The notes under the pieces were generated by a model. It was given only the letters and a program-made list of their open reading frames with translations, made no database searches and was not told the DNA's origin. Position numbers and translations under genes: made by a program. From a bacterium (GTDB lineage: Bacteria > UBA8248), in NCBI GenBank assembly GCA_965200245.1, contig CBDATS010000004.1:1184001-1248000 (forward strand): 64,000 bases of DNA, in the 5' to 3' direction. Positions within the stretch are counted from its first letter, which is position 1. The number at the start of each line of letters is the position of its first letter. Positions 1-63,999 of this stretch are shown piece after piece.

Positions 1-1
1 G

Positions 2-187
2 CGATTTCGCGAGATGCTCGAAGGCGAAGGCCCCATCGGCCGAAAGCTGGATTTCCTCACCCAGGAGATGAACCGGGAGGCCAACACGATTTCGTCGAAA
101 TCCATCGACCTCGCCCTGACCCAGAGTGCGGTCGAGGTAAAAAGCGCCATCGAGAAAATCCGCGAACAGGTGCAAAACGTCGAATGA
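2..187 (+). CDS. yicC: YicC/YloC family endoribonuclease, C-terminal part (5' truncated by window edge)
   Basis: Frame 2 reads ...GRKLDFLTQEMNREANTISSKS...IEKIREQVQNVE*, the conserved YicC C-terminus; overlaps gmk start as in the usual yicC-gmk arrangement. Confidence 0.92.
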   Translation, partial: RFREMLEGEGPIGRKLDFLTQEMNREANTISSKSIDLALTQSAVEVKSAIEKIREQVQNVE

Positions 188-14565: not shown

Positions 14566-15720
14566 TCAGACACGCATGGGCATCACGACATACGTATAAC
14601 CCTCCGAGTCTTTTGGAGAGAACACTCCAGGGCTCAGTGAATCCTTTAGTTCCATGCTGATCTGCTCTTCGTCCAGTATGGAAAGCACCTCGATGCAATA
14701 CCTTGAATTGAATCCAATCGTGATATCAGTCTGCGCATTCGATTCTATGATTTCTTCGGCTTCCCCCGCTTCCGAGCCGTTCGTCGTCAACCTCAACTGG
14801 CCTTGGGAAAACTCGAATTTCACCATGCGTGTTTCGTTCGTAAAAAGTGAAACGCGCCTGAGTGCCTGTGTCAGACCTTCACGGTTCATCGTGATGGAAT
14901 GTTCATTGTCCGGTATTACCTGCCTGTATTTCGGGAATTCCCCGTCTATCAACCGGGCCGACAACGCAATATCTTCCAATTGAAAAATGATGTGATTTGG
15001 TATGAGAGAGGCGGACCCTTCACCTCCCGAAAGAGTCAATCCCTGGCCGCTTGGGACATGCGTGAGCGAAACGGAGACATCGCCCTCTACGCCCTGCAAG
15101 AGCCTCACGAGTTCCCCCAGGGCTTTTTTGTGAACGATGACCCCTTCAGCCAGAGTCAACCCCTCGCTGGGGCGCTCTATCATCGCCAGGCGATGACCGT
15201 CCGTAGCGACGAGACGCAGGATGTCGGCATCAGTCTCCATGTAAACGCCATTATAGGTATAGCGTGTCTCGTCCTGAGAAATTGCAAACATCGTCTTTCG
15301 AATCATTTCCGATAGAACAGAAGCGGAAATCGTCTGCGCCTGTGGTTCTTTCGACTCCGGAAGCGCGGGAAACTCCGAAGGCGGCAATCCGGGAAAACGG
15401 AACCTTGATCGCTCACAACGCATTTCAATCCATTGCCCATCCTGTTCCGAGAAGCGGACTTCCGCCTCTGGAAGTTCCCGGACGATATCAAATAATTTCC
15501 TTGCATTCAGGGTGACTTTACCCGCCTTCCCTATCTCGGCCTTGAAGATTCCCCGCATGCTTATATCAAGATTCGTGCCCAGCAAGTGGATATTGTTCTT
15601 CCCCTCGGTCTCGACAAGCACGTTTTGCAGTATCGGCATTGCGCTGCTTCTGTTTTCAACGACACCCTGTATCGTCTGCAAGGCCCTGAGCAGCGTTTCC
15701 CTCGAAATGGTTAATTCCAC
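14566..15720 (-). CDS. dnaN: DNA polymerase III beta clamp
   Basis: MPILQNVL, FAISQDETRY, VATDGHRLA, RLIDGEFPKY, IGFN, YVVMPMR. Confidence 0.96.
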   Translation of the reverse strand: MELTISRETLLRALQTIQGVVENRSSAMPILQNVLVETEGKNNIHLLGTNLDISMRGIFKAEIGKAGKVTLNARKLFDIVRELPEAEVRFSEQDGQWIEMRCERSRFRFPGLPPSEFPALPESKEPQAQTISASVLSEMIRKTMFAISQDETRYTYNGVYMETDADILRLVATDGHRLAMIERPSEGLTLAEGVIVHKKALGELVRLLQGVEGDVSVSLTHVPSGQGLTLSGGEGSASLIPNHIIFQLEDIALSARLIDGEFPKYRQVIPDNEHSITMNREGLTQALRRVSLFTNETRMVKFEFSQGQLRLTTNGSEAGEAEEIIESNAQTDITIGFNSRYCIEVLSILDEEQISMELKDSLSPGVFSPKDSEGYTYVVMPMRV

Positions 15721-38540: not shown

Positions 38541-39116
38541 TCAGAGGGAGTTCTTTGCGTAATCCCATCCCGATTGAAACGACTTCACCTCGCCGGTTGA
38601 TTCCTCATATTTAAAGCGCGGTATCTTCGCAAGATTACCGCCATAGACATGAATGCCCACCACGGGTTCAGACGATGCGCAACTTACGCGGTGCACATCG
38701 TTGTCCAACGTACAGCAGACAAAGACATCCCCAGGCCCGGCAATTCGGTGGCCTTTTGGTGTGAGCTTTACACGGGCACCGCTCTCCCGAGGTCCTTCCC
38801 GCAAAAAACTCTCCTCTTTCTCCATTCCACGGTAAATGCCTATCACTCCCCATGTACCGTGATCATGGATCGGAGTGGTCTGCCCTACGTCCCATATCCC
38901 CGCGCCTATCGAGAAACTCTCATCCGGTTCGATATGAATGCGGTTGAGCGTAAAACTCTCTTTCTTTAGCAGGAGTTGCTCCTCGCTCAACAGATTCGGC
39001 TCGTTCAAAACCGGCTCAAGGATCGCTGCTGCCCTGGCGGTTATTTCCTCTTCCGCACCGCCTTCCTTCACGATTCCACGCACCTGATTGACGATCCCGT
39101 TCATGCCCTTTGACAT
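38541..39116 (-). CDS. Thiol dioxygenase (cysteine/3-mercaptopropionate dioxygenase family)
   Basis: W..GQTTPIHDHGTWG, DVHRV, IHVYGG. Confidence 0.82.
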   Translation of the reverse strand: MSKGMNGIVNQVRGIVKEGGAEEEITARAAAILEPVLNEPNLLSEEQLLLKKESFTLNRIHIEPDESFSIGAGIWDVGQTTPIHDHGTWGVIGIYRGMEKEESFLREGPRESGARVKLTPKGHRIAGPGDVFVCCTLDNDVHRVSCASSEPVVGIHVYGGNLAKIPRFKYEESTGEVKSFQSGWDYAKNSL

Positions 39117-39159: not shown

Positions 39160-39717
39160 TCATCGCTTGAGTTTATGGTTCATTTCATGTGCCAAAAGCG
39201 CCAGCTTGAGCGATGCGCTGCTGGCGAATCCACCGAGCTCGCCCGAGCCCGCGATGACTCGATGTCATGGTATCACAAGAGGCACGGGGTTTCTATGCAA
39301 AGCCTGGCCAACGGCGCGTGATGCTTTCGGGTTTCCGATTTCCTTCGCGACCCACCCATAGGGGCGCGTCTCTCCGTACGGAATTTCTTCTGTCTTCCTG
39401 AGCACTTTGTCCATAAAAGGAGTGAGCGCAGAGAGGTCTGTTCTCAATTTGAAACCTTTCCGCACGCCGCTCAGATATTCTTCTATCTCCTTTGAAGCCC
39501 GGCGGCCCAAAGGTGTGGATTGGTCACTCGTACAATGGGCCACGTGCAGTTTCTCCACTCCATCCAGCATCCTTATTTCCGCAATTCCCCTGTCCGATAC
39601 GAAAACGGAGAATTCCGTACGCACCTTCTTCAGCCAATATGCAACGTGGGCATTGAGCGAGTCCGCGGTTTCATCGAACAACCCGACTTGCCTCCATCCA
39701 CTCAACCAACGCGTCAT
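39160..39717 (-). CDS. ogt: Methylated-DNA--protein methyltransferase with selenocysteine at the acceptor site (TGA 39265-39267 read as Sec), 185 aa
   Basis: IPYGETRPY, ASRAVGQA, NPVPLVIP-TGA-HRVI..SGELGGF....LK..LLAHE; TGA occupies the Cys of PCHRV and the frame continues 34 codons with family-typical sequence. Confidence 0.88.
39234..39251 (-). promoter_or_regulatory. Putative SECIS hairpin of ogt
   Basis: CGGGCUC-GGGC-GAGCUCG (7 bp including one G-U); G-initiated loop begins 20 nt after UGA. Confidence 0.65.
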
Positions 39718-42986: not shown

Positions 42987-43517
42987 TCAACCTTTCAAAT
43001 GGCTGGCCACTTCCTCAACAAACTTGAGTGTCGTTTCTCTCATTTCATCGGGCTGCAAGTTGCTCACCGGATGAGGTAACTGCACATACGGGTGACCTTC
43101 CATTCCCTTTCCACGAAACTGAAAGTCAGCAGCGTTTTTGAACGCCTCGGTAATAATGGTCGTTGCCGGGATACCCCGTTTCTCAAATTCAACCGTGTCG
43201 TGCACACTGCACAACGTGCAGGAACCTCAGCCACCCAAGGCGGCTATCGCCAAATCAATCTCCTGGGCCATATCCTCGATCATTTCATCGGTGGCGGGTT
43301 TGGAATAATGCTCCTTCCGCCGCGAGATGACTCTGGCCACGTCGTATTGTTCACGCAGGGCATTTCCCAGAGTTTCCAAAATGATGTCCGCTTGCTCTTT
43401 CGTGTTGTCCAAGAGCCCTACTACTTTCCCTGAAAGGTCTTCGGGGCGTTGTGCAAGCTCGATTCGTGCAACCGACCCACCCGCTGTCGGATCGATGAAT
43501 CCCATTCCGTTCGCCAT
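42987..43517 (-). CDS. UGSC-type selenoprotein (TGA 43227-43229 read as Sec; GrdB/PrdB-like UxxC), 176 aa
   Basis: ORFs 43227-43529 and 42987-43214 are in the same frame: ...DLAIAALGG-TGA-GSCTLCSVHDTVEFEKRGIPA...; ATG 43517 follows GGAG. Confidence 0.9.
43197..43215 (-). promoter_or_regulatory. Putative SECIS hairpin of the UGSC gene
   Basis: GUUGUGCA-GUG-UGCACGAC; 8-bp stem starts 11 nt after UGA, with a G-initiated loop. Confidence 0.75.
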
Positions 43518-43717
43518 GGTTTTCTCCATTAGAATTATGTGAATTCAATCGCGTTCGCATCATATCCCGCAATTTAGTCCCTGTCTACGATATCAATGCC
43601 CCTTCAGCCATGGCTCGAAAACACGAATGAAGTTTTTCCCTCTTCTCAGTTTCGCCGAATTTTGACAAAATCAAGCCTACTTCACTCAACTCCTCCAATC
43701 TTTAAGGAGCAAAACAA

Positions 43718-46156: not shown

Positions 46157-47176
46157 CTACACACTGAATTTTTTGGTCACGGCCCGACATGCTACGGTGA
46201 TTCCATGCATGACCATGCTTGATGGCGATCCTTTGCTTCCCGCGACGATCAGGTGAAGATCTTCGGGATCCCCTACTGCAGGCACGAAGAAATCATCATC
46301 ATGTATATCCACGGGAAACGGCCAGCGATCCGCGCCTTTCTCGCCTCTCCAGATCCCGCCCCGCTTGATATCTCGGATAGTACGACCACCCATTTCCAGC
46401 AATTTTCGGTGTACATCGCTGCGGGCCAAGCCTGCACCGGCGCACAGATGCGCATGTTGCGCGCCCAGGACAACCGCCATGTCAGCTTGCCGATACATAT
46501 TGGGTCCGCCCAGAGCGGACATCATATCGGCAACCGTCGCAAGAAGTCGGTCGGGGGTCAGGCTCGCATCGTCCCATACCTGTACGGGGCCTTCGAGAGG
46601 AATCATGGTCACAACATTGTCGCTTTTGTGAAATCCCTTCGATTCTGCATACGACTCCCAGGGCGATTCCTCCTCGTACTCCATAATGCAAAAGGTGTTT
46701 CGCCAAGGACCCCCAAAACCGCCCAGACAGGTGACTCCGGGGATGCCTCCACCCACATTCATCATGACGAGCCTCACGGCGCGGCCGATGGTCAAGTTTG
46801 CGCGAAAACCAGGACCCATGCAGCCCACGCCGCCGTGCAAACCGATTTCCCTGGCGTAGGGACCATTCACCAACAGAAAAGGCGCACCCGCACTCGTCGT
46901 GGCCTGGATGAGATTTACGTTGAAACGCTCATCAAGAAGCGCCTCCAGACCCGCTATCAAGACCGGCATGTATTCAGGTTTACAACCAGCCATCACGGCA
47001 TGTGCCGCCACGCCCTGGATGCTGAGTTCCCCGCCCGCCGGAGCCACATGACCGAGCACTTCGCCAGGCTCCCTTGCCGTCCCAGAGAGCATCGATGCGA
47101 TCCTGCCTTCCGTCGGTGTCACGACAGGCAAGCCGTCTGACCATTCTTTTTCAAAGAAAAACTCGAACTCATCCAT
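46157..47176 (-). CDS. Uncharacterised 'DGLP' family protein, tandem paralogue 4
   Basis: WSDGLPVVTPT, HAVMAGCKPEY, QATT, VNGP, GCMGPGFRAN.TIGRA, ESPWE. Confidence 0.85.
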   Translation of the reverse strand: MDEFEFFFEKEWSDGLPVVTPTEGRIASMLSGTAREPGEVLGHVAPAGGELSIQGVAAHAVMAGCKPEYMPVLIAGLEALLDERFNVNLIQATTSAGAPFLLVNGPYAREIGLHGGVGCMGPGFRANLTIGRAVRLVMMNVGGGIPGVTCLGGFGGPWRNTFCIMEYEEESPWESYAESKGFHKSDNVVTMIPLEGPVQVWDDASLTPDRLLATVADMMSALGGPNMYRQADMAVVLGAQHAHLCAGAGLARSDVHRKLLEMGGRTIRDIKRGGIWRGEKGADRWPFPVDIHDDDFFVPAVGDPEDLHLIVAGSKGSPSSMVMHGITVACRAVTKKFSV

Positions 47177-47192
47177 CAATTTGGCGATTATC

Positions 47193-47363
47193 CTATTGAC
47201 GAAATGGACACAATATCATGCATGAGGTGCCCGACCCACAGGGGAACGCAAGATATCGGGATGCTACATGACGAGCGGGGATGTCTACGACACCATTGCA
47301 TAAAGTGCCAGCACAGATTCCAGCGCCCCTGCATGCTGCCCCTGAGCAAGGGTTCTTGTCCAT
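47193..47363 (-). CDS. Possible 56-aa Cys-rich protein (below ORF-track cutoff)
   Basis: AAAGGA before ATG; 7 Cys including C-terminal CxxGxxCxxxCP; ends 16 nt before the ATG of the next paralogue. Confidence 0.35.
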   Translation of the reverse strand: MDKNPCSGAACRGAGICAGTLCNGVVDIPARHVASRYLAFPCGSGTSCMILCPFRQ

Positions 47364-47516
47364 GAAATCCTTTTTTATCGGGCATCACCTCTTTCTGGTT
47401 TTGGATACAACCCCCTGTATTCTCCTGTGAGTTGGATCTCGGTGCAATATCCTGCGGTTGACTCATTTAGAGAGACAAACACGAATCCATCCTTGAATAC
47501 CAGCCTGACAGAAAGA

Positions 47517-48533
47517 CTATGGTCGATAAGCAGCCGAAACCGCTTCGCTGCCATCCACCCAGCCAGGCATGACGGCCGTCACCGGTCCGGGCGTACCCCC
47601 TGCGACGATCAAAACCAGATCGTCTTCATTTTTGACCGCCGGGACCATGAATGAATCATCTTGCCGCCCCGCGTCAGGCGGCCATTTTGCTATCATTTCC
47701 TCACGCCAATAGCCCGATTTTTTCAGCTCCCCGAGAGGCTTGCACGCAAGCTCCATGATTTGGTGATGGACATCTTCCTTGCTCAAGCCCGCCGCCGCGC
47801 ACATGCGCGCATGATCCGGACCCAATGCGACGACAACCTGTGTTCTCAGCCAAATATTCAGCGACCCCAACGTGGATATCTTGTCCGCCAGCCCGACGAA
47901 AAATGATTCCGGCTCCCTGGAATAATCATCGATATACCCTTGAGGCGCTTCTGCCATCACGGCGGTCACAACATCATCATCTGGATGAAACCCTCTCGTA
48001 ACGGACAATGGCTCCCAGGGGTTTTCCGCTTCATTCTCGGCGACACAAAACGTATATCTGGCAGGTGAACCGAATGTGCTCATGGAGGCGGAAATCGGCA
48101 CACCGCCGCCGATGTTCATAAGAATGAGCCGGATGGCACGACCAATCGTCGCATTCGCCCGAAAACCCGGGCCAAAGCATCCCGTGCCGCCATGCAGGCC
48201 AATTTTTTTCGCGTACGGCCCATTCATGATCAGTAAAGGTGCCGCGCTGTGCATGGTGCCCTGCACACCGTTCAAATTGAGTTTCGGCTCAAGCAGCGTC
48301 TGGAGGCCGGCAATCACAACGGGCAAAAACGAAGGCTCGCACCCCGCCATGACGGCATGCGCGGCAATCGCTTGAACACTGGCCTCCCCCATGAGGGGTG
48401 GCACCAAGCCGATGACTTCCGAAGCCCCAGGTTTTGCGCACGAAAGCATGGCGGACATTCGTTCCTGGGTAGGAGGAACAATCGGCAGGCCATCCGACCA
48501 TTCTTTTTGAAAGAAAAACTCGAATTCATCCAT
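47517..48533 (-). CDS. Uncharacterised 'DGLP' family protein, tandem paralogue 3
   Basis: WSDGLPIVPPT, HAVMAGCEP, GVQGT, GCFGPGFRANATIGRA, ENPWE. Confidence 0.85.
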   Translation of the reverse strand: MDEFEFFFQKEWSDGLPIVPPTQERMSAMLSCAKPGASEVIGLVPPLMGEASVQAIAAHAVMAGCEPSFLPVVIAGLQTLLEPKLNLNGVQGTMHSAAPLLIMNGPYAKKIGLHGGTGCFGPGFRANATIGRAIRLILMNIGGGVPISASMSTFGSPARYTFCVAENEAENPWEPLSVTRGFHPDDDVVTAVMAEAPQGYIDDYSREPESFFVGLADKISTLGSLNIWLRTQVVVALGPDHARMCAAAGLSKEDVHHQIMELACKPLGELKKSGYWREEMIAKWPPDAGRQDDSFMVPAVKNEDDLVLIVAGGTPGPVTAVMPGWVDGSEAVSAAYRP

Positions 48534-48574
48534 CGAAACTTGGTTTCGCCTTGCCGGTCACGGCATATTCAGCG

Positions 48575-49603
48575 TCAAACTTCATAGACCCCATGTACGG
48601 CGCGGCTCCCGCCGCTCCACCCATGACAGACCGCACTGCCCGATCCCCACCCGCCTGCGACGATCAGGTGAAGGTCGCGGGAATCCTTGATGACGGGGAC
48701 GAAAAAATCCTCATCATCCGGATCTACGTGGATATACATATCCAGAGCACGCTCGCGTCGCCAGTTGCCGCCTTGTTTCAGATCCTTCACCTTATGGCCG
48801 GCCAATTCACACAGACGCCGATGCACGTCAGCGCGCGCCAGGCCACCCTCGGAACAAATCTTTGCATGCTGAGGATTCATGGCGACAACCATATCGGTTC
48901 TTGGCGCGTGCATGTTCCAGGAACCCAAACCCGTCATCGCATCGGCGATGCCGCGGAGCAGCCTCTCGGGCTCCTCGCTTACATCATCAAAGGTCAATCG
49001 CGGGCTTTCCACCATCGCCATGGTAATCACGTTCTCGTCCTTTCCATACCCTCTGGATTCAGCGAGCGTCTCCCACGGGTGAAATGGAAGGTTCTCCGTG
49101 ATGCAGGCCGTATAGCGCAGCGGCGTGGCGAAAATCGTCATGGAGGAAACACCCGGAATGCCCCCGCCCAGGTTCATCAAAATCAGGCGAATGGCGCGCC
49201 CTATGGAAGCGTTGGCCCTGAATCCGGGGCCAAAGCAACCGTTGCCCCCATGAATGCCGATTTCTTCGGAATAGGGCCCGTTCACGATCATGAGTGGCGC
49301 TACGCCGTGCATCGTGCCCTGCACGCCATTCATGTTGAATTCTTCACGGAGCATGAGGGAAGTGGCACCGAGAACAACCGGCAGATATTCGGGCTTGCAA
49401 CCCGCCATTACCGCATGAACCGCCACGCTGTGAACCGTGGCCTCACTCATGGCGGGGGGAACGTGGCCTATCAGTTCATCAGAATTTCTCTTTGTACCGG
49501 CAAGCATGCGCTCAATGCGCTCCCCGGTCGGAGTGACGACCGGAAGGCCGTCCGACCAGGGTTTTTCAAGAAAAAACTCGAATTCATCTTGAGGTTCGTT
49601 CAA
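48575..49603 (-). CDS. Uncharacterised 'DGLP' family protein, tandem paralogue 2
   Basis: WSDGLPVVTPT, HAVMAGCKPEY, GVQGT, GCFGPGFRANASIGRA, HPWE. Confidence 0.85.
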   Translation of the reverse strand: MNEPQDEFEFFLEKPWSDGLPVVTPTGERIERMLAGTKRNSDELIGHVPPAMSEATVHSVAVHAVMAGCKPEYLPVVLGATSLMLREEFNMNGVQGTMHGVAPLMIVNGPYSEEIGIHGGNGCFGPGFRANASIGRAIRLILMNLGGGIPGVSSMTIFATPLRYTACITENLPFHPWETLAESRGYGKDENVITMAMVESPRLTFDDVSEEPERLLRGIADAMTGLGSWNMHAPRTDMVVAMNPQHAKICSEGGLARADVHRRLCELAGHKVKDLKQGGNWRRERALDMYIHVDPDDEDFFVPVIKDSRDLHLIVAGGWGSGSAVCHGWSGGSRAVHGVYEV

Positions 49604-49634
49604 ATTTCCTTACCTCTTGAAGGTACGGATATCA

Positions 49635-50666
49635 TCAAGATTCGAATGCGCGCGATACGGAACGGCTGCTCCCGTTCCATCCGTGCATCACGGCCGTAAT
49701 CGGGCCTGGAACACCACCTGCCACGATCAAGATTAGTCTTTGGGCCTCTTTTATCGTCGGAACGAACACTTCGTCATCGTTCAAATCGACAGGAATCGGA
49801 AAACTCTTGACGCGATTTTCCCTGAAATGCCCTCCCGTTTTGAGTTCGCCCACCGTGCGGCCCGCAATTTCGCAAAGGCGTCCGTGGACATCCGCCCTTG
49901 AATACCCCCTCTTTGCGCAAATCGCGGCCTGTTGCGGGCTCATCGCCACCACCAGATCGGTATTGGCCCAACAGTTCCACGAACCCAGGTGCGACATGGT
50001 GTCCGCTATGGAAGGCAACATGCGCTCGGGGTCGTCGCTCACATCATCCCAGGACATGACGGGGCCCTCTACGTGCACGGCGGTTACTACATTCTCCCCG
50101 GCTTCGAAACCCTTCGACTGCGCAAGAGACTCCCAGGGACTCTCCTCCTCGTTCTCTGCGATGCAATACGTGAACCTGCCCGGCTGTGAGAACGTACTCA
50201 TCGAAGTGATGCCCGGTATTCCGCCGCCAATGTTGAGAAGCAAAAGCCTGATGGCCCGGCCGATTGTCGCGTTGGCGCGATTCCCGGGACCGAAACAGCC
50301 GAGTCCGCCGTGTAGCCCGACTTCCCTGGCATAAGGGCCGTTCACGATCAAGAGAGGGGCTGCGCATGAGAGAGTCGCCTGAACGCCACCCACGTTGAAT
50401 TTTTCTTCTAAAACAGCCTCCATCGCCGCGATGAGAACTGGCATATATTCCGGTTTGCATCCGGCCATGACGGCGTGAACGGCTATGGTCCGAACGTCCG
50501 CCTGCCCCAGAAGCGGGGGTATGTCACCGATGATTTCGTCCGGACCGCGGTTCGTCCCCGCTAACATGAGGCCCACACGCTCTTCGGTGGGGGGGATGAC
50601 CGGCAGACCATCCGACCAGGCCATTTCGAAGAAATATTCGAACTCATCCACAGGAGGGGTACTCAC
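49635..50666 (-). CDS. Uncharacterised 'DGLP' family protein, tandem paralogue 1
   Basis: WSDGLPVIPPT, HAVMAGCKPEY, GVQAT, GCFGPGNRANATIGRA, ESPWE; GTG 50666 follows GGAGG. Confidence 0.85.
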   Translation of the reverse strand: MSTPPVDEFEYFFEMAWSDGLPVIPPTEERVGLMLAGTNRGPDEIIGDIPPLLGQADVRTIAVHAVMAGCKPEYMPVLIAAMEAVLEEKFNVGGVQATLSCAAPLLIVNGPYAREVGLHGGLGCFGPGNRANATIGRAIRLLLLNIGGGIPGITSMSTFSQPGRFTYCIAENEEESPWESLAQSKGFEAGENVVTAVHVEGPVMSWDDVSDDPERMLPSIADTMSHLGSWNCWANTDLVVAMSPQQAAICAKRGYSRADVHGRLCEIAGRTVGELKTGGHFRENRVKSFPIPVDLNDDEVFVPTIKEAQRLILIVAGGVPGPITAVMHGWNGSSRSVSRAFES

Positions 50667-50821
50667 GAAAGCCTCCGAAACGAATTGTTGGAGCAAAGGA
50701 CACGTTTACCGCCAATCATGCGGAAAATATACACGGGCACTGGACAGATTGCGAGTCCATGTCGTTAGAATGCCACCGCGTCCCGATCCACGATCATCAC
50801 CTCACATACAGGAGCACCTTG

Positions 50822-61485: not shown

Positions 61486-62520
61486 CTAATCCTGTACAGG
61501 CTTCGTGACCGCCCGCGTCTCACCGTAGGTAGGGAAAAAAAGCGTGTGGCTCCCCGGTCCACCCGCCACGGTGAGGAGAATGCTTTTTGGGCTATCCGCA
61601 ATCGGAACGGCCTCGGGCTCTGAATCGGTGAAGAGTCCCGGCCGCTTGCCCCGAACGCGCTCGGCTATCTCCGGAGAAAAGCTCGCGAGCGAAACCCGAG
61701 CAAGTTCAAAGAGCGCACACTGCACGTCCTTTCGGTCCATGCCGCCCGCTTCGAGGAGACTTTTATGCTGGGGGCTAAGGACGACCAGCACTTCGCCACC
61801 GCCTTGGGCGTTGTTCGAGCCGGGATAGGCCATTGAGCCTGCGATCATGTGCAGCACACTCTCCGCGCTCCCGCTCGCGTAATCGTTCACGTTCACAGGC
61901 GCGTCCGCACCCACCACCGTCACGGCATCTTGATCCGCGCGGAACCCCCGCGCCATATGGAGCGGCTCCCAGCCGCATTCCGCCTCGGCGAAACAGGCGG
62001 AGAACTTCCCTCCGTGGCCGAAAGTGGCCATATCTGTCTCACCGGGAGTCGCCTGCCCCAGCCGCACGGCGACCAGGCGGACGGCGCGCCCGATCGTAGC
62101 GTTCGCCCGAAAGCCCGGCCCAAGGCATCCGCTACCCGAATGTACGTCAAGCCGTTCGGCAAGAGGCCCGTGGACGACAACCAAGGGCGAGGCGAGTTCG
62201 GTGGTCGCCTGAATGGCCAGGAAATTGAATTCGGGCTCCATCACGGCTTCGAGCGCCGCCAGAACCACCGGGAAGTACACAGGTTTGCACCCTGCGGCCA
62301 CCGCGCAGACGGCGGCATCCCCCACAGTCAACTCTTGCATGCCGGGCGGCATGATTCCCAGAACGTGGCCGGGACCCTCCTGCACCGAGGCGAGCATGGC
62401 GTCGATCGCCCGGCGTGTAGGCGGGACGAGGGGGAGTCCGTCACCCGGTCCGTTCTCAAGTGCGGCTTCGAGCGCCGCCTCGGCGCTCGGCGAAATTTCA
62501 CTCAGAAGTGCCCCGGACAT
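61486..62520 (-). CDS. Uncharacterised 'DGLP' family protein
   Basis: GDGLPLVPPT, AVAAGCKP, IQATT, VHGP, GCLGPGFRANATIGRA, WEPLH..RGF. Confidence 0.85.
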   Translation of the reverse strand: MSGALLSEISPSAEAALEAALENGPGDGLPLVPPTRRAIDAMLASVQEGPGHVLGIMPPGMQELTVGDAAVCAVAAGCKPVYFPVVLAALEAVMEPEFNFLAIQATTELASPLVVVHGPLAERLDVHSGSGCLGPGFRANATIGRAVRLVAVRLGQATPGETDMATFGHGGKFSACFAEAECGWEPLHMARGFRADQDAVTVVGADAPVNVNDYASGSAESVLHMIAGSMAYPGSNNAQGGGEVLVVLSPQHKSLLEAGGMDRKDVQCALFELARVSLASFSPEIAERVRGKRPGLFTDSEPEAVPIADSPKSILLTVAGGPGSHTLFFPTYGETRAVTKPVQD

Positions 62521-62523
62521 AAC

Positions 62524-63999
62524 CTAGTCGATCTTCCGCGTCACAGAGCGGTGGTTCAGTGCGCCCGGCGCAAGGAGCGAGTTCGGTCCCGCGCCGCCAT
62601 GCACCACGATGGTGATGTCGCTTCGGTCCTCGACGATGGGAAGTGTCGCATTCTCCATCGTATTCACTCCGTAGAGCATCTGCTTCCAGTCGCTCCACCG
62701 TTCGCGCGATTCGGGGGGATAGGCGTGGACGGGAATACGGTAGACTTCACAGAGGAAATCGCGCACGAGCTTTTTGTCGAACCCCGCCTCTGCGACCTTG
62801 TTCGCGTGGGTGGGGCCGAATATAAGCATGATCTCGCAGCGGCCGAACTGCGGTCGAGTGCCGGAGCAAGCGGCCACCGTTCCGAAAGTCCCAAGGATGC
62901 CCTGCGCGGTGAGCGCGCTGTGATCATCTACCATGTGGAGGGGTTCTGCAGTGAACACCGTCACGACACTATCCGTTTCAGCGAAGCCCTTCTCCACATG
63001 GAGCGGCTCCCAGGGGCTCTGTTCGACGTTCTCGGTAATGGCGTCGAAATACTTGGCGAAATGGCCCTGGCAAGTAGCACCCCTGTTTTCGAGGTCGCCG
63101 ATGCAGTTGAACATGATGAACTTGACCGCGCGGCCGATGGAGGCGTTCACTCCCCATCTCTTCTCGCTCAGGTCGCGTCCGTCGCTCATCCCGATCTCTT
63201 GTGCGATGGGGCCGTTCACCACGACGATGGGGAACAGCGTGTGCGCCGTGGTGATGACATGGTTGACGTGATATTCCTCAGCCCCCATGGCTTGCACCGC
63301 TGTCACGAGGATAGGCATGACGCCCGGCTTGCATCCCGCCATGACGGCGTTGGCTGCGATTCGTTCGACAGTGATGTCCGCCATTCTAGGCATGAGGCGG
63401 GCGATGACTTCATCTCCCCTCCGGCCCGAGGCCGCCACAAACCGCTCCACCATCTCCACAGTGGGAGGTATGACGGGCAGCCCGTCGGTCACGCCTAGAT
63501 CGAAGAGCGCTCCGTTGGTGCCAATGGGGTCTGCCTCTATCGAAAGAACTCGCTCGATGGGGTCTTCCGCTGCTGCGGCTTCTCCCCCGTTCGCTGAGTT
63601 CATCCACTCGGAGGCCACAGAATCCACGCCGTTTCGCGCAATGTGCGTCAGAGCGTCGCCGCCTTGGTGGGCCACGGTGTCGTCCACCAGGAGAAGGCGC
63701 AGATTTGGGGATTTATAGGCACGGGCGAAGCTGCGCGCCGCCGTCTCGAAACCGTTTCCCACCACTACGACGGTGGGAACACCGCGTTTTTCGAGTTCCG
63801 CCGAGTCGTGGACACTCCACGACGTGCAACCCCCTCAGACTCCGAAGCCGGTTACCGCCACATCGCAGTTCGAGGCGATCTCGTCGAGCATCTCCTGCCC
63901 GGCACCCTGAGCGGCCCAGCCCTTCTTTCGCACGAAGAGTTCGGCGCCGTGCCGTTCCGCAAAGACCTCCCCGACATGGTTCAGGAATTCACCCGCGTG
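62524..63999 (-). CDS. Fusion of a UGSC-type Sec domain (U-G-G-C; TGA 63835-63837) and a divergent 'DGLP' domain; 5' end beyond window
   Basis: Continuous frame ...EMLDEIASNCDVAVTGFGV-TGA-GGCTSWSVHDSAELEKRGVPTVVVVGNGF...TDGLPVIPPT...NAVMAGCKP... Confidence 0.88.
63805..63823 (-). promoter_or_regulatory. Putative SECIS hairpin of the fusion gene
   Basis: GUCGUGGA-GUG-UCCACGAC; perfect 8-bp stem starts 11 nt after UGA. Confidence 0.78.

Follow-up and report, generated by a model that had tools for sequence, protein, structure and literature searches.

An in-frame UGA at the alkyl-acceptor site of a bacterial O6-alkylguanine-DNA alkyltransferase, predicted to encode selenocysteine

The ogt gene described here lies in a window of 64,000 nucleotides, the whole stretch of bacterial DNA that was analysed, and carries an in-frame UGA exactly at the codon for the alkyl-acceptor cysteine of O6-alkylguanine-DNA alkyltransferases. 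It is very probably a selenoprotein gene and neither a sequencing error nor a pseudogene. With good confidence, its product is a genuine suicide alkyltransferase of the constitutive type that uses selenocysteine (Sec) as its nucleophile. The features of the gene are as follows.

39160..39717, minus strand: ogt coding sequence, Sec form of O6-alkylguanine-DNA alkyltransferase, 185 amino acids with the internal UGA read through (profiles, AlphaFold2, Foldseek)
39265..39267, minus strand: in-frame UGA at the alkyl-acceptor site, predicted selenocysteine, residue 151, aligned with the Cys of PCHRV
39163..39264, minus strand: the 34 codons after the UGA, with His152, Arg153, the active-site loop, Phe164, Lys171, Glu178 and the C-terminal helix
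39268..39417, minus strand: DNA-binding helix-turn-helix with Tyr120, the arginine finger Arg134 and the asparagine hinge Asn143

The reading frame starts with the ATG at 39717 and ends with a TGA at 39160-39162 on the minus strand. Codon 151 stands in the context ...RNPVPLVIP-U-HRVIAGSGELGGF...LKLALLAHE..., with exactly 34 codons from there to the stop, which bears out an earlier note on this DNA that had reported a frame open for 34 codons past the UGA. The placing of the UGA at the acceptor Cys, claimed in the same note, was confirmed by a gapless alignment around the site to the solved alkyltransferases M. tuberculosis OGT and human AGT. The [IV]PCHR[VI] motif is intact around the UGA, and the nucleophile is present only if the UGA is decoded. 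Read through, the protein scored 102 bits against PF01035 (cut-off 27) and 98.9 against TIGR00589 (cut-off 46.4); the 150-amino-acid form ending at the UGA scored 58.4 and covered positions 1-52 of the 80 positions of TIGR00589. No match to PF02870 was obtained for the read-through protein at 1e-3.

An AlphaFold2 model with Cys placed at the site reached a pLDDT of 83.8, the post-UGA helix 168-183 included. Its top Foldseek match was M. tuberculosis OGT (E 2e-10, TM 0.67), and all matches listed with E < 0.001 were alkyltransferases or alkyltransferase-like (ATL) proteins, in agreement with the two-domain fold that the window protein shares with M. tuberculosis OGT (4bhb, 4wx9) and human AGT (1eh6, 1yfh; TM 0.6-0.68). 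Common to all of them are the features described for the AGT/Ogt family, i.e. a helix-turn-helix with a Tyr, an arginine finger, an asparagine hinge, a His/Glu pair and a conserved Lys (PMC10779285). In the alignment to the solved structures, every supporting residue is kept (Tyr120, Arg134, Asn143, His152, Lys171 and Glu178). Tyr120 and Arg134 occur in 56/56 and Asn143 in 55/56 of the clade proteins, taken as the 56 closest of 120 listed. The window protein differs from the two solved enzymes in its predicted Sec in place of Cys, in Phe164 where M. tuberculosis OGT has Tyr139 and human AGT Tyr158, and in an extra N-terminal segment of approx. 30 residues with a Q-x-x-L-F motif. Assignment to the bifunctional regulator Ada was rejected, as NF011964 scored 63.5 against a cut-off of 345 with the C-terminal part matched only. 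An N-terminal Zn/AraC regulator domain as in Ada was not found, and the clade has no conserved Cys. ATL proteins carry Trp or another non-nucleophile at the site. Membership in this class was likewise rejected: the site is UGA and not TGG, ATL structures were far weaker matches, and Asn143 is kept here, whereas ATL proteins are described as being without the asparagine hinge (PMC10779285).

A protein search listed 120 matches, one of them the window's own protein. None of the 56 closest, at 61-82% identity, is a Cys form: 54 terminate with the Pro that precedes the site, another has the same length but a final Gln, and the last stops before that point. Hence the view that all close relatives might have TGC or TGT is contradicted by 0 of the 56 closest listed proteins with Cys, and the suspicion that annotation pipelines would call the gene truncated describes 54 of these 56 (of 120 listed). 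Reading the UGA as Sec corrects a systematic annotation error that makes a whole clade look as if its repair gene were broken. Among the remaining, more distant matches listed, five stop at the site too and 58 have PCHR, and the best 150 matches in a 50%-cluster library comprised 11 that stop at the site, 127 with PCHR and 12 with neither pattern. At the DNA level, species genomes were scanned with a pattern that demanded TGA at the acceptor site and left the position of the Asn hinge free. At least 115 matches were found, and 112 of those listed are ogt genes with UGA at the site, so that orthologues retaining the TGA, for which the earlier note had suggested a search, are abundant; the other three of the 115 listed (L046, L061 and L113) are chance matches and not ogt. 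Two of the 112 listed loci come from one assembly. The UGA-containing loci, at least 112 as listed, fall into 12 named phyla according to their record titles (nine without a phylum name), led among the listed loci by Thermodesulfobacteriota (29), Bacillota (29) and Planctomycetota (13). The single Pseudomonadota record, a 3-kb contig syntenic with the window, may be mis-binned. In the clade of the window, the UGA was seen on DNA in 10 loci. As the scan covered TGA only, some singleton loci may be nonsense alleles. One such locus may be L085 (267-311, minus strand), the sole Sec-type locus whose Asn hinge is replaced by Thr, since it also failed the hairpin test described below.

The codons after the UGA were compared with the five closest loci by a dN/dS-type approach, as had been proposed. 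Over 27 codons, pN was 0.03-0.07 and pS 0.38-0.48, values close to those of the 52 codons preceding the UGA. Judged from these substitution patterns, with pN far below pS, the segment 3′ of the UGA is translated and under purifying selection. Synonymous change was unevenly distributed (pS 0-0.29 in codons 1-12, 0.66-0.76 in codons 13-27), and low values in codons 1-12 are what an RNA signal within the reading frame would predict. The gene combines an in-frame UGA at a conserved Cys, its retention in orthologues and a selected frame downstream, as is typical of selenoprotein genes.

Downstream of the UGA, the mRNA can form a hairpin of the bacterial SECIS type, composed of the following elements.

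39226..39260, minus strand: bacterial SECIS-type hairpin with lower stem, upper stem and loop (fold and comparative data)
39256-39260 with 39226-39230, minus strand: lower stem, 5 bp (fold)
39245-39251 with 39234-39240, minus strand: upper stem, 7 bp (fold)
39241-39244, minus strand: loop GGGC (fold)

The G-rich loop 20 nt after the UGA pointed out in the earlier note was thus recovered as GGGC on a 7-bp stem, with a spacer of 20 nt, pair probabilities of 0.78-0.84 in a 45-nt fold and an energy of −12.3 kcal/mol locally or −17.2 kcal/mol in the two-stem form. The published bSECIS model calls for a loop of 3-9 nt, an upper stem of 4-16 bp, a G in the first two loop positions, a spacing of 16-37 nt and an energy of at most −7.5 kcal/mol (PMC13188914); the window hairpin satisfies these values with 4 nt, 7 bp, 20 nt and −12.3 kcal/mol. 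Taken alone, it is marginal and not beyond chance. Its z-scores were −0.3 to −1.4 against dinucleotide shuffles, with three of four folds giving other structures, and −1.83 (p = 0.05) against synonymous-codon shuffles. The significance of the hairpin therefore comes from comparative data and not from the fold of the window sequence alone.

The comparative set consisted of 112 sequences, namely 111 loci and the window, with the three chance matches and the short L033 left out. A lenient loop rule, which approx. 60% of shuffles pass, was passed by 109/112 sequences compared to 67.6 expected from synonymous shuffles, and 107/112 folded better than the mean of their own shuffles. A bSECISearch-type check thus came out in favour of the hairpin both in the window, by the published model, and in at least 109 sequences by the lenient rule. 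The excess was found only in the intervals +1..33 (96%) and +10..42 (95%; n = 108) after the UGA, with 37-67% in 12 other intervals. No excess was seen in 14 Cys-coding ogt/ada controls, eight of which passed the rule with 6.8 expected (median z −0.05). Among the true UGA stops in the window, 4/26 passed, and their best fold had −11.6 kcal/mol versus −12.3 kcal/mol for the ogt UGA. Furthermore, the Gly codon in the loop had a pyrimidine as its third base in 91% (n = 88 sequences), compared to 51% for upstream Gly codons. No structure common to the 86 sequences analysed with RNAalifold emerged, and a single consensus structure across phyla was rejected; the upper stem shifts its register between lineages. 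The register of the window's upper stem was paired in 46% of cells in the 86 sequences, with slid controls equal on covariation. The lower stem was paired in 84% of cells, in part because the protein fixes those bases. The hairpin is kept as a shape at a position and not pair for pair, which would fit independent origins. A promoter and terminator scan at the locus gave nothing informative.

Genes for selA, selB, selD and tRNA-Sec were not found within the 64-kb window, nor was tRNA-Sec in 78 flanks of ogt loci; a SelA motif was present in one flank only (L065). Gene order around ogt is common to L037, L051, L056 and L068 and in part to L018 and L032. The isolate name of L032, FO_M_Nitrospinota_01, matches an entry of BSepDB, which places it under UBA8248 with 54 selenoprotein genes and admits a species only if two or more sel genes are present (PMC13326102). 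Judged by this synteny and by protein matches named Nitrospinota, the window would belong to UBA8248 as well, so that support for sel genes is at the level of the lineage. A second predicted selenoprotein gene lies approx. 4 kb upstream of ogt.

42987..43529, minus strand: second predicted selenoprotein, UGSC family, with an in-frame UGA at 43227-43229 and its own hairpin passing the loop rule

The encoded protein reached 149 bits against NF041046 (cut-off 125), and its UGA is kept in six related loci. From the sequence, this gene would be supporting context for Sec use, linked to ogt by position. Near it are six similar-looking genes of 340-410 amino acids, four of them in tandem (46157-50696 and 61486-63765, both minus strand). 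Two of the six were tested and had no Pfam match at E 0.1; they and their paralogues recur in related loci. Directly downstream of ogt is a cupin gene (38541-39116, minus strand) resembling cysteine dioxygenase (PF05995, E 0.003, below cut-off). It is close downstream of ogt in seven clade loci and duplicated in L032, and it does not stand beside Sec-type ogt genes in other phyla.

The distribution of Sec and Cys was mapped on an unrooted tree of 182 rows and approx. 100 columns, with the columns of the Sec codon and the hairpin left out. It contains 19 switches between Sec and Cys, three of which are forced by strongly supported branches. The 12-row clade of the window holds 11 Sec forms and one Cys form (P0062), and one Nitrospirota group with 97% support holds nine Sec and seven Cys forms. 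A single Sec clade was rejected by the AU test (p-AU 4.6e-6) on a hand-picked subset of 49 rows, whose own strong branches force just one Sec/Cys change. Because the alignment is short and the tree unrooted, gains are not separable from losses. The best explanation suggested by these sequences is that lineages which use selenium gained or lost Sec on several occasions, and the interchange of both residues argues that they do the same job. Close sister pairs of Sec and Cys forms exist, e.g. in Nitrospirota. Two Cys forms of the Nitrospirota group, P0108 and P0116, have post-site residues nearly identical to those of neighbouring Sec forms; on this resemblance they are candidates for a recent Sec-to-Cys reversion and would be ideal matched pairs. 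A separate short subfamily with UGA at the site (L004, L015, L017, L022 and related loci; 20 tree rows), mostly from Desulfobacterales-type records, is short ahead of the DNA-binding domain and extended at the C-terminus.

Sec-containing Ogt itself is already known as a prediction, and its breadth is wider than first reported. It was predicted in 2005 in Carboxydothermus hydrogenoformans and called unique and very recent (PMC1287953); by its description, that predicted gene resembles ours in having a UGA for the same acceptor Cys and a stem-loop just downstream. Further reports gave two Sec versus eight Cys forms in a worm-symbiont metagenome (PMC1976440) and one versus 2,879 in ocean samples (PMC2398784), and noted Sec-Ogt in algae (PMC7539508). 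It is listed as a predicted selenoprotein family (PMC13188914, PMC9312934), with high confidence in a 2026 listing. Whereas the Carboxydothermus report concerned a single organism, the present count is at least 112 loci, spread over 12 named phyla, and includes a clade with Sec almost fixed. Of the earlier assessment that Sec forms are predicted but rare, the first part stands from 2005 onward; the second holds insofar as they are a minority, yet one with this wide a spread. The picture shifts from one recent oddity to a form recurring in many phyla, although BSepDB may already hold many of these genes and thereby cover much of the breadth reported here.

The earlier note also knew of no biochemical study. 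This holds for the natural form, for which our literature search found no assay, most subscription papers being outside its coverage; it does not hold for an engineered human AGT with Sec at the position of the window UGA (Sec145), which was tested in E. coli. AGT-Sec145 protected an ada/ogt-null strain from MNNG about as well as the wild type, and the N137A/Sec145 variant was active where N137A/Cys145 was inactive (PMC4150793; Haruna et al. 2014). On these results, Sec works at the acceptor site and needs less activation. In that work Sec was inserted by artificial decoding of UAG and assessed in a growth assay (PMC4150793), whereas the window gene has a natural UGA. Asn137 was dispensable in human AGT-Sec145, but the natural Sec forms keep this Asn in 112/113 sequences among the matches listed. 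The idea that natural Sec forms had lost the Asn hinge, suggested by the N137A result, was thus rejected, and Sec does not seem to compensate for a damaged pocket.

In the mechanism we propose, the in-frame UGA would be recoded by SelB with Sec-tRNA, docked on the hairpin that lies within the 13 codons that follow. The full-length protein would bind the DNA minor groove via its helix-turn-helix, and the observed residues Arg134 and Tyr120 would flip the O6-alkylguanine into the pocket, both steps as known from the family. By analogy to other alkyltransferases and to the engineered human AGT-Sec145, the selenolate of Sec151 would then make a single attack on the alkyl carbon, by which guanine is restored and the protein ends up Se-alkylated and dead. 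Sec probably does the same job as Cys with a modest gain, needing no activation, and a faster alkyl transfer is plausible. The earlier note considered it odd to spend one Sec per repair event. This cost paradox appears weak, since the whole protein of 185 residues would be spent per repair anyway and one Se atom should add little cost for a lineage that encodes some 50 selenoproteins. A one-step alkyl transfer together with matched natural pairs offers a clean test of selenium for nucleophilic speed apart from redox cycling.

Several other readings of the UGA have to be weighed against selenocysteine. A recent nonsense mutation or a base-call error would need one change only, from TGC or TGT to TGA, and would be compatible with the marginal fold of the window hairpin alone. 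It is opposed by 54 of the 56 closest listed relatives, which stop at the very same place, and by the UGA seen on DNA in 10 clade loci. A genome-wide reassignment is opposed by UGA being an ordinary stop in this genome, where it ends 26 of 54 genes, none of which contains a further UGA in frame, and by the ordinary use of TGG and TGC/TGT in the window genes. On this sequence evidence, error, mutation and reassignment are refuted for the clade of the window, and their probability is negligible. It is also highly improbable that the UGA is a true stop and the 150-amino-acid product a non-catalytic, ATL-like lesion binder. Read-through of UGA is usually incomplete, so that some truncated protein is likely made, and it would keep the helix-turn-helix and the arginine finger. 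However, the post-UGA codons are under purifying selection at the amino-acid level, with Lys171 and Glu178 kept, selection on the hairpin is position-specific, and the asparagine hinge is retained here and absent in ATLs (PMC10779285). A further reading is that the UGA is recoded in part or completely to Cys, through a backup tRNA-Cys carrying an opal anticodon (selC*/SelB* type), which would yield an ordinary Cys enzyme at least when selenium is scarce. Such tRNAs were described in genomes with a full Sec apparatus, including Desulfobacterales (PMC5389517), 29 of the at least 112 UGA-containing loci belong to Thermodesulfobacteriota, and the Cys form P0062 sits inside the clade of the window. 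Yet the description places the opal-anticodon selC* in a Desulfobacterales subgroup and not in the window's lineage (PMC5389517), none was found in the window or flanks, and such a tRNA would supplement Sec decoding, not replace it. We regard this alternative as improbable.

If the UGA is read as Sec, the residue might also serve a different purpose than faster transfer, and the earlier note had suggested that methyl-Sec may be recyclable. We found no support for a protein made recyclable by demethylation or turnover of methyl-Sec, and consider this, or a new redox role, very improbable. Alkyl selenoethers are stable. A second conserved Cys is absent: upstream of the UGA, 51 of 56 clade proteins contain no Cys at all, and in the others its position varies. 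No neighbour family is common to unrelated phyla beyond generic ones, and a dedicated recycling partner gene was sought among 667 neighbouring ORFs and not found. The interleaving of both forms on the tree, e.g. nine Sec and seven Cys forms in Nitrospirota, points in the same direction, as does the destabilisation of the fold by alkylation in the AGTs studied (PMC10779285). Against this stand the strong retention of the UGA in the clade, which shows selection for something, and the fact that most selenoproteins are redox enzymes (PMC2398784). Overall, the evidence favours a Sec that does the work of the Cys in a single-turnover repair protein.

A Tyr-to-Phe exchange at residue 164 as a Sec-specific adaptation was not established. 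Phe occupies this position in 102/111 Sec sequences (two Tyr, seven unmatched) and is common in Cys proteins as well (23/58 and 50/127), and the comparison comprises three independent Sec/Cys pairs only. The Phe codon is paired in the lower stem at 0.75 in 88 Sec sequences compared to 0.21 in 14 Cys sequences, so that RNA structure may explain the residue. In M. tuberculosis OGT, Y139F was reported to lower the affinity for alkylated DNA (PMC5751216).

Apart from the Sec question, the N-terminal segment of the protein carries a motif that may bind the sliding clamp, a lead that draws on a modelled complex.

39676..39690, minus strand: Q-x-x-L-F motif, candidate for sliding-clamp binding, residues 10-14, QVGLF; clade consensus QGELF
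14566..15720, minus strand: dnaN (sliding clamp), candidate partner in a complex prediction; three DNA_pol3_beta domains above cut-off

The motif occurs in 55/56 clade proteins and in 1/63 of the other listed matches, against a background of approx. 0.002 per 25 sites. It is absent from four more distant clade loci and present in 6/113 Sec forms among the matches listed; being mostly absent from other Sec forms, it is a matter separate from Sec. The clamp-binding consensus is QL(S/D)LF (PMC9690074). The window motif has its Q (position 1), L (position 4) and F (position 5) and lies in a terminal segment of low confidence (residues 1-15 are unstructured in the AlphaFold2 model, pLDDT < 50), but positions 2 and 3 (VG or GE) are off-consensus and its location is N-terminal. 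Ogt, MGMT and alkyl repair do not occur in the accessible text of this review of clamp binding (PMC9690074). A complex prediction for Ogt and the window DnaN gave weak support with a score of 0.39, compared to 0.00 for the best of three controls; its runs agreed in at least 72% of contacts and the partner pLDDT was at least 44. The mark for such scores is reached by 116/157 solved complexes and 2/215 mismatches, and at scores of up to 0.60 by 18/157 solved complexes and both mismatches. As clamp-peptide complexes have already been solved, the predictor may have reproduced known structures in this pass. The dnaN gene is 24 kb from ogt and not part of the locus. No dnaA, recF or gyrB was recognised alongside it, and its product is approx. 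18 residues longer than more distant homologues (384-385 versus 365-366 amino acids).

We tentatively suggest, though we hold it rather doubtful, that the Sec-Ogt of this marine lineage is tethered to the clamp via Q-x-x-L-F and that its pre-activated selenolate would remove O6-alkylguanine at the fork before mispairing. If the tether were true, a bacterial alkyltransferase would be coupled to replication, and nature would have run the Cys-to-Sec experiment repeatedly in a single-turnover reaction without redox chemistry. A functional motif would link bacterial direct repair to the replisome, a link for which we found no precedent among the titles and abstract openings listed by a literature search. 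With the breadth of Sec-Ogt, the matched Sec/Cys pairs and the possible clamp motif, a long-standing question becomes open to experiment, even if a selenoprotein specialist will not be surprised.

Q-x-x-L-F also occurs at the C-terminus of the Sec-Ogt from Acidimicrobiia (L009) and of the Cys form P0331, and internally in P0373. These sequences hint that Ogt may have acquired motifs of the clamp type more than once. Five further proteins that stop at the UGA site (P0063, P0064, P0069, P0073 and P0248) have an extra N-terminal segment, presumably a ribbon-helix-helix DNA-binding domain. In P0063 this segment gave a weak match to TacA1 (E 0.05), and the arrangement is possibly an autoregulatory fusion of ribbon-helix-helix and Ogt. 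In P0063, a Q-x-x-L-F motif stands directly before the Ogt domain.
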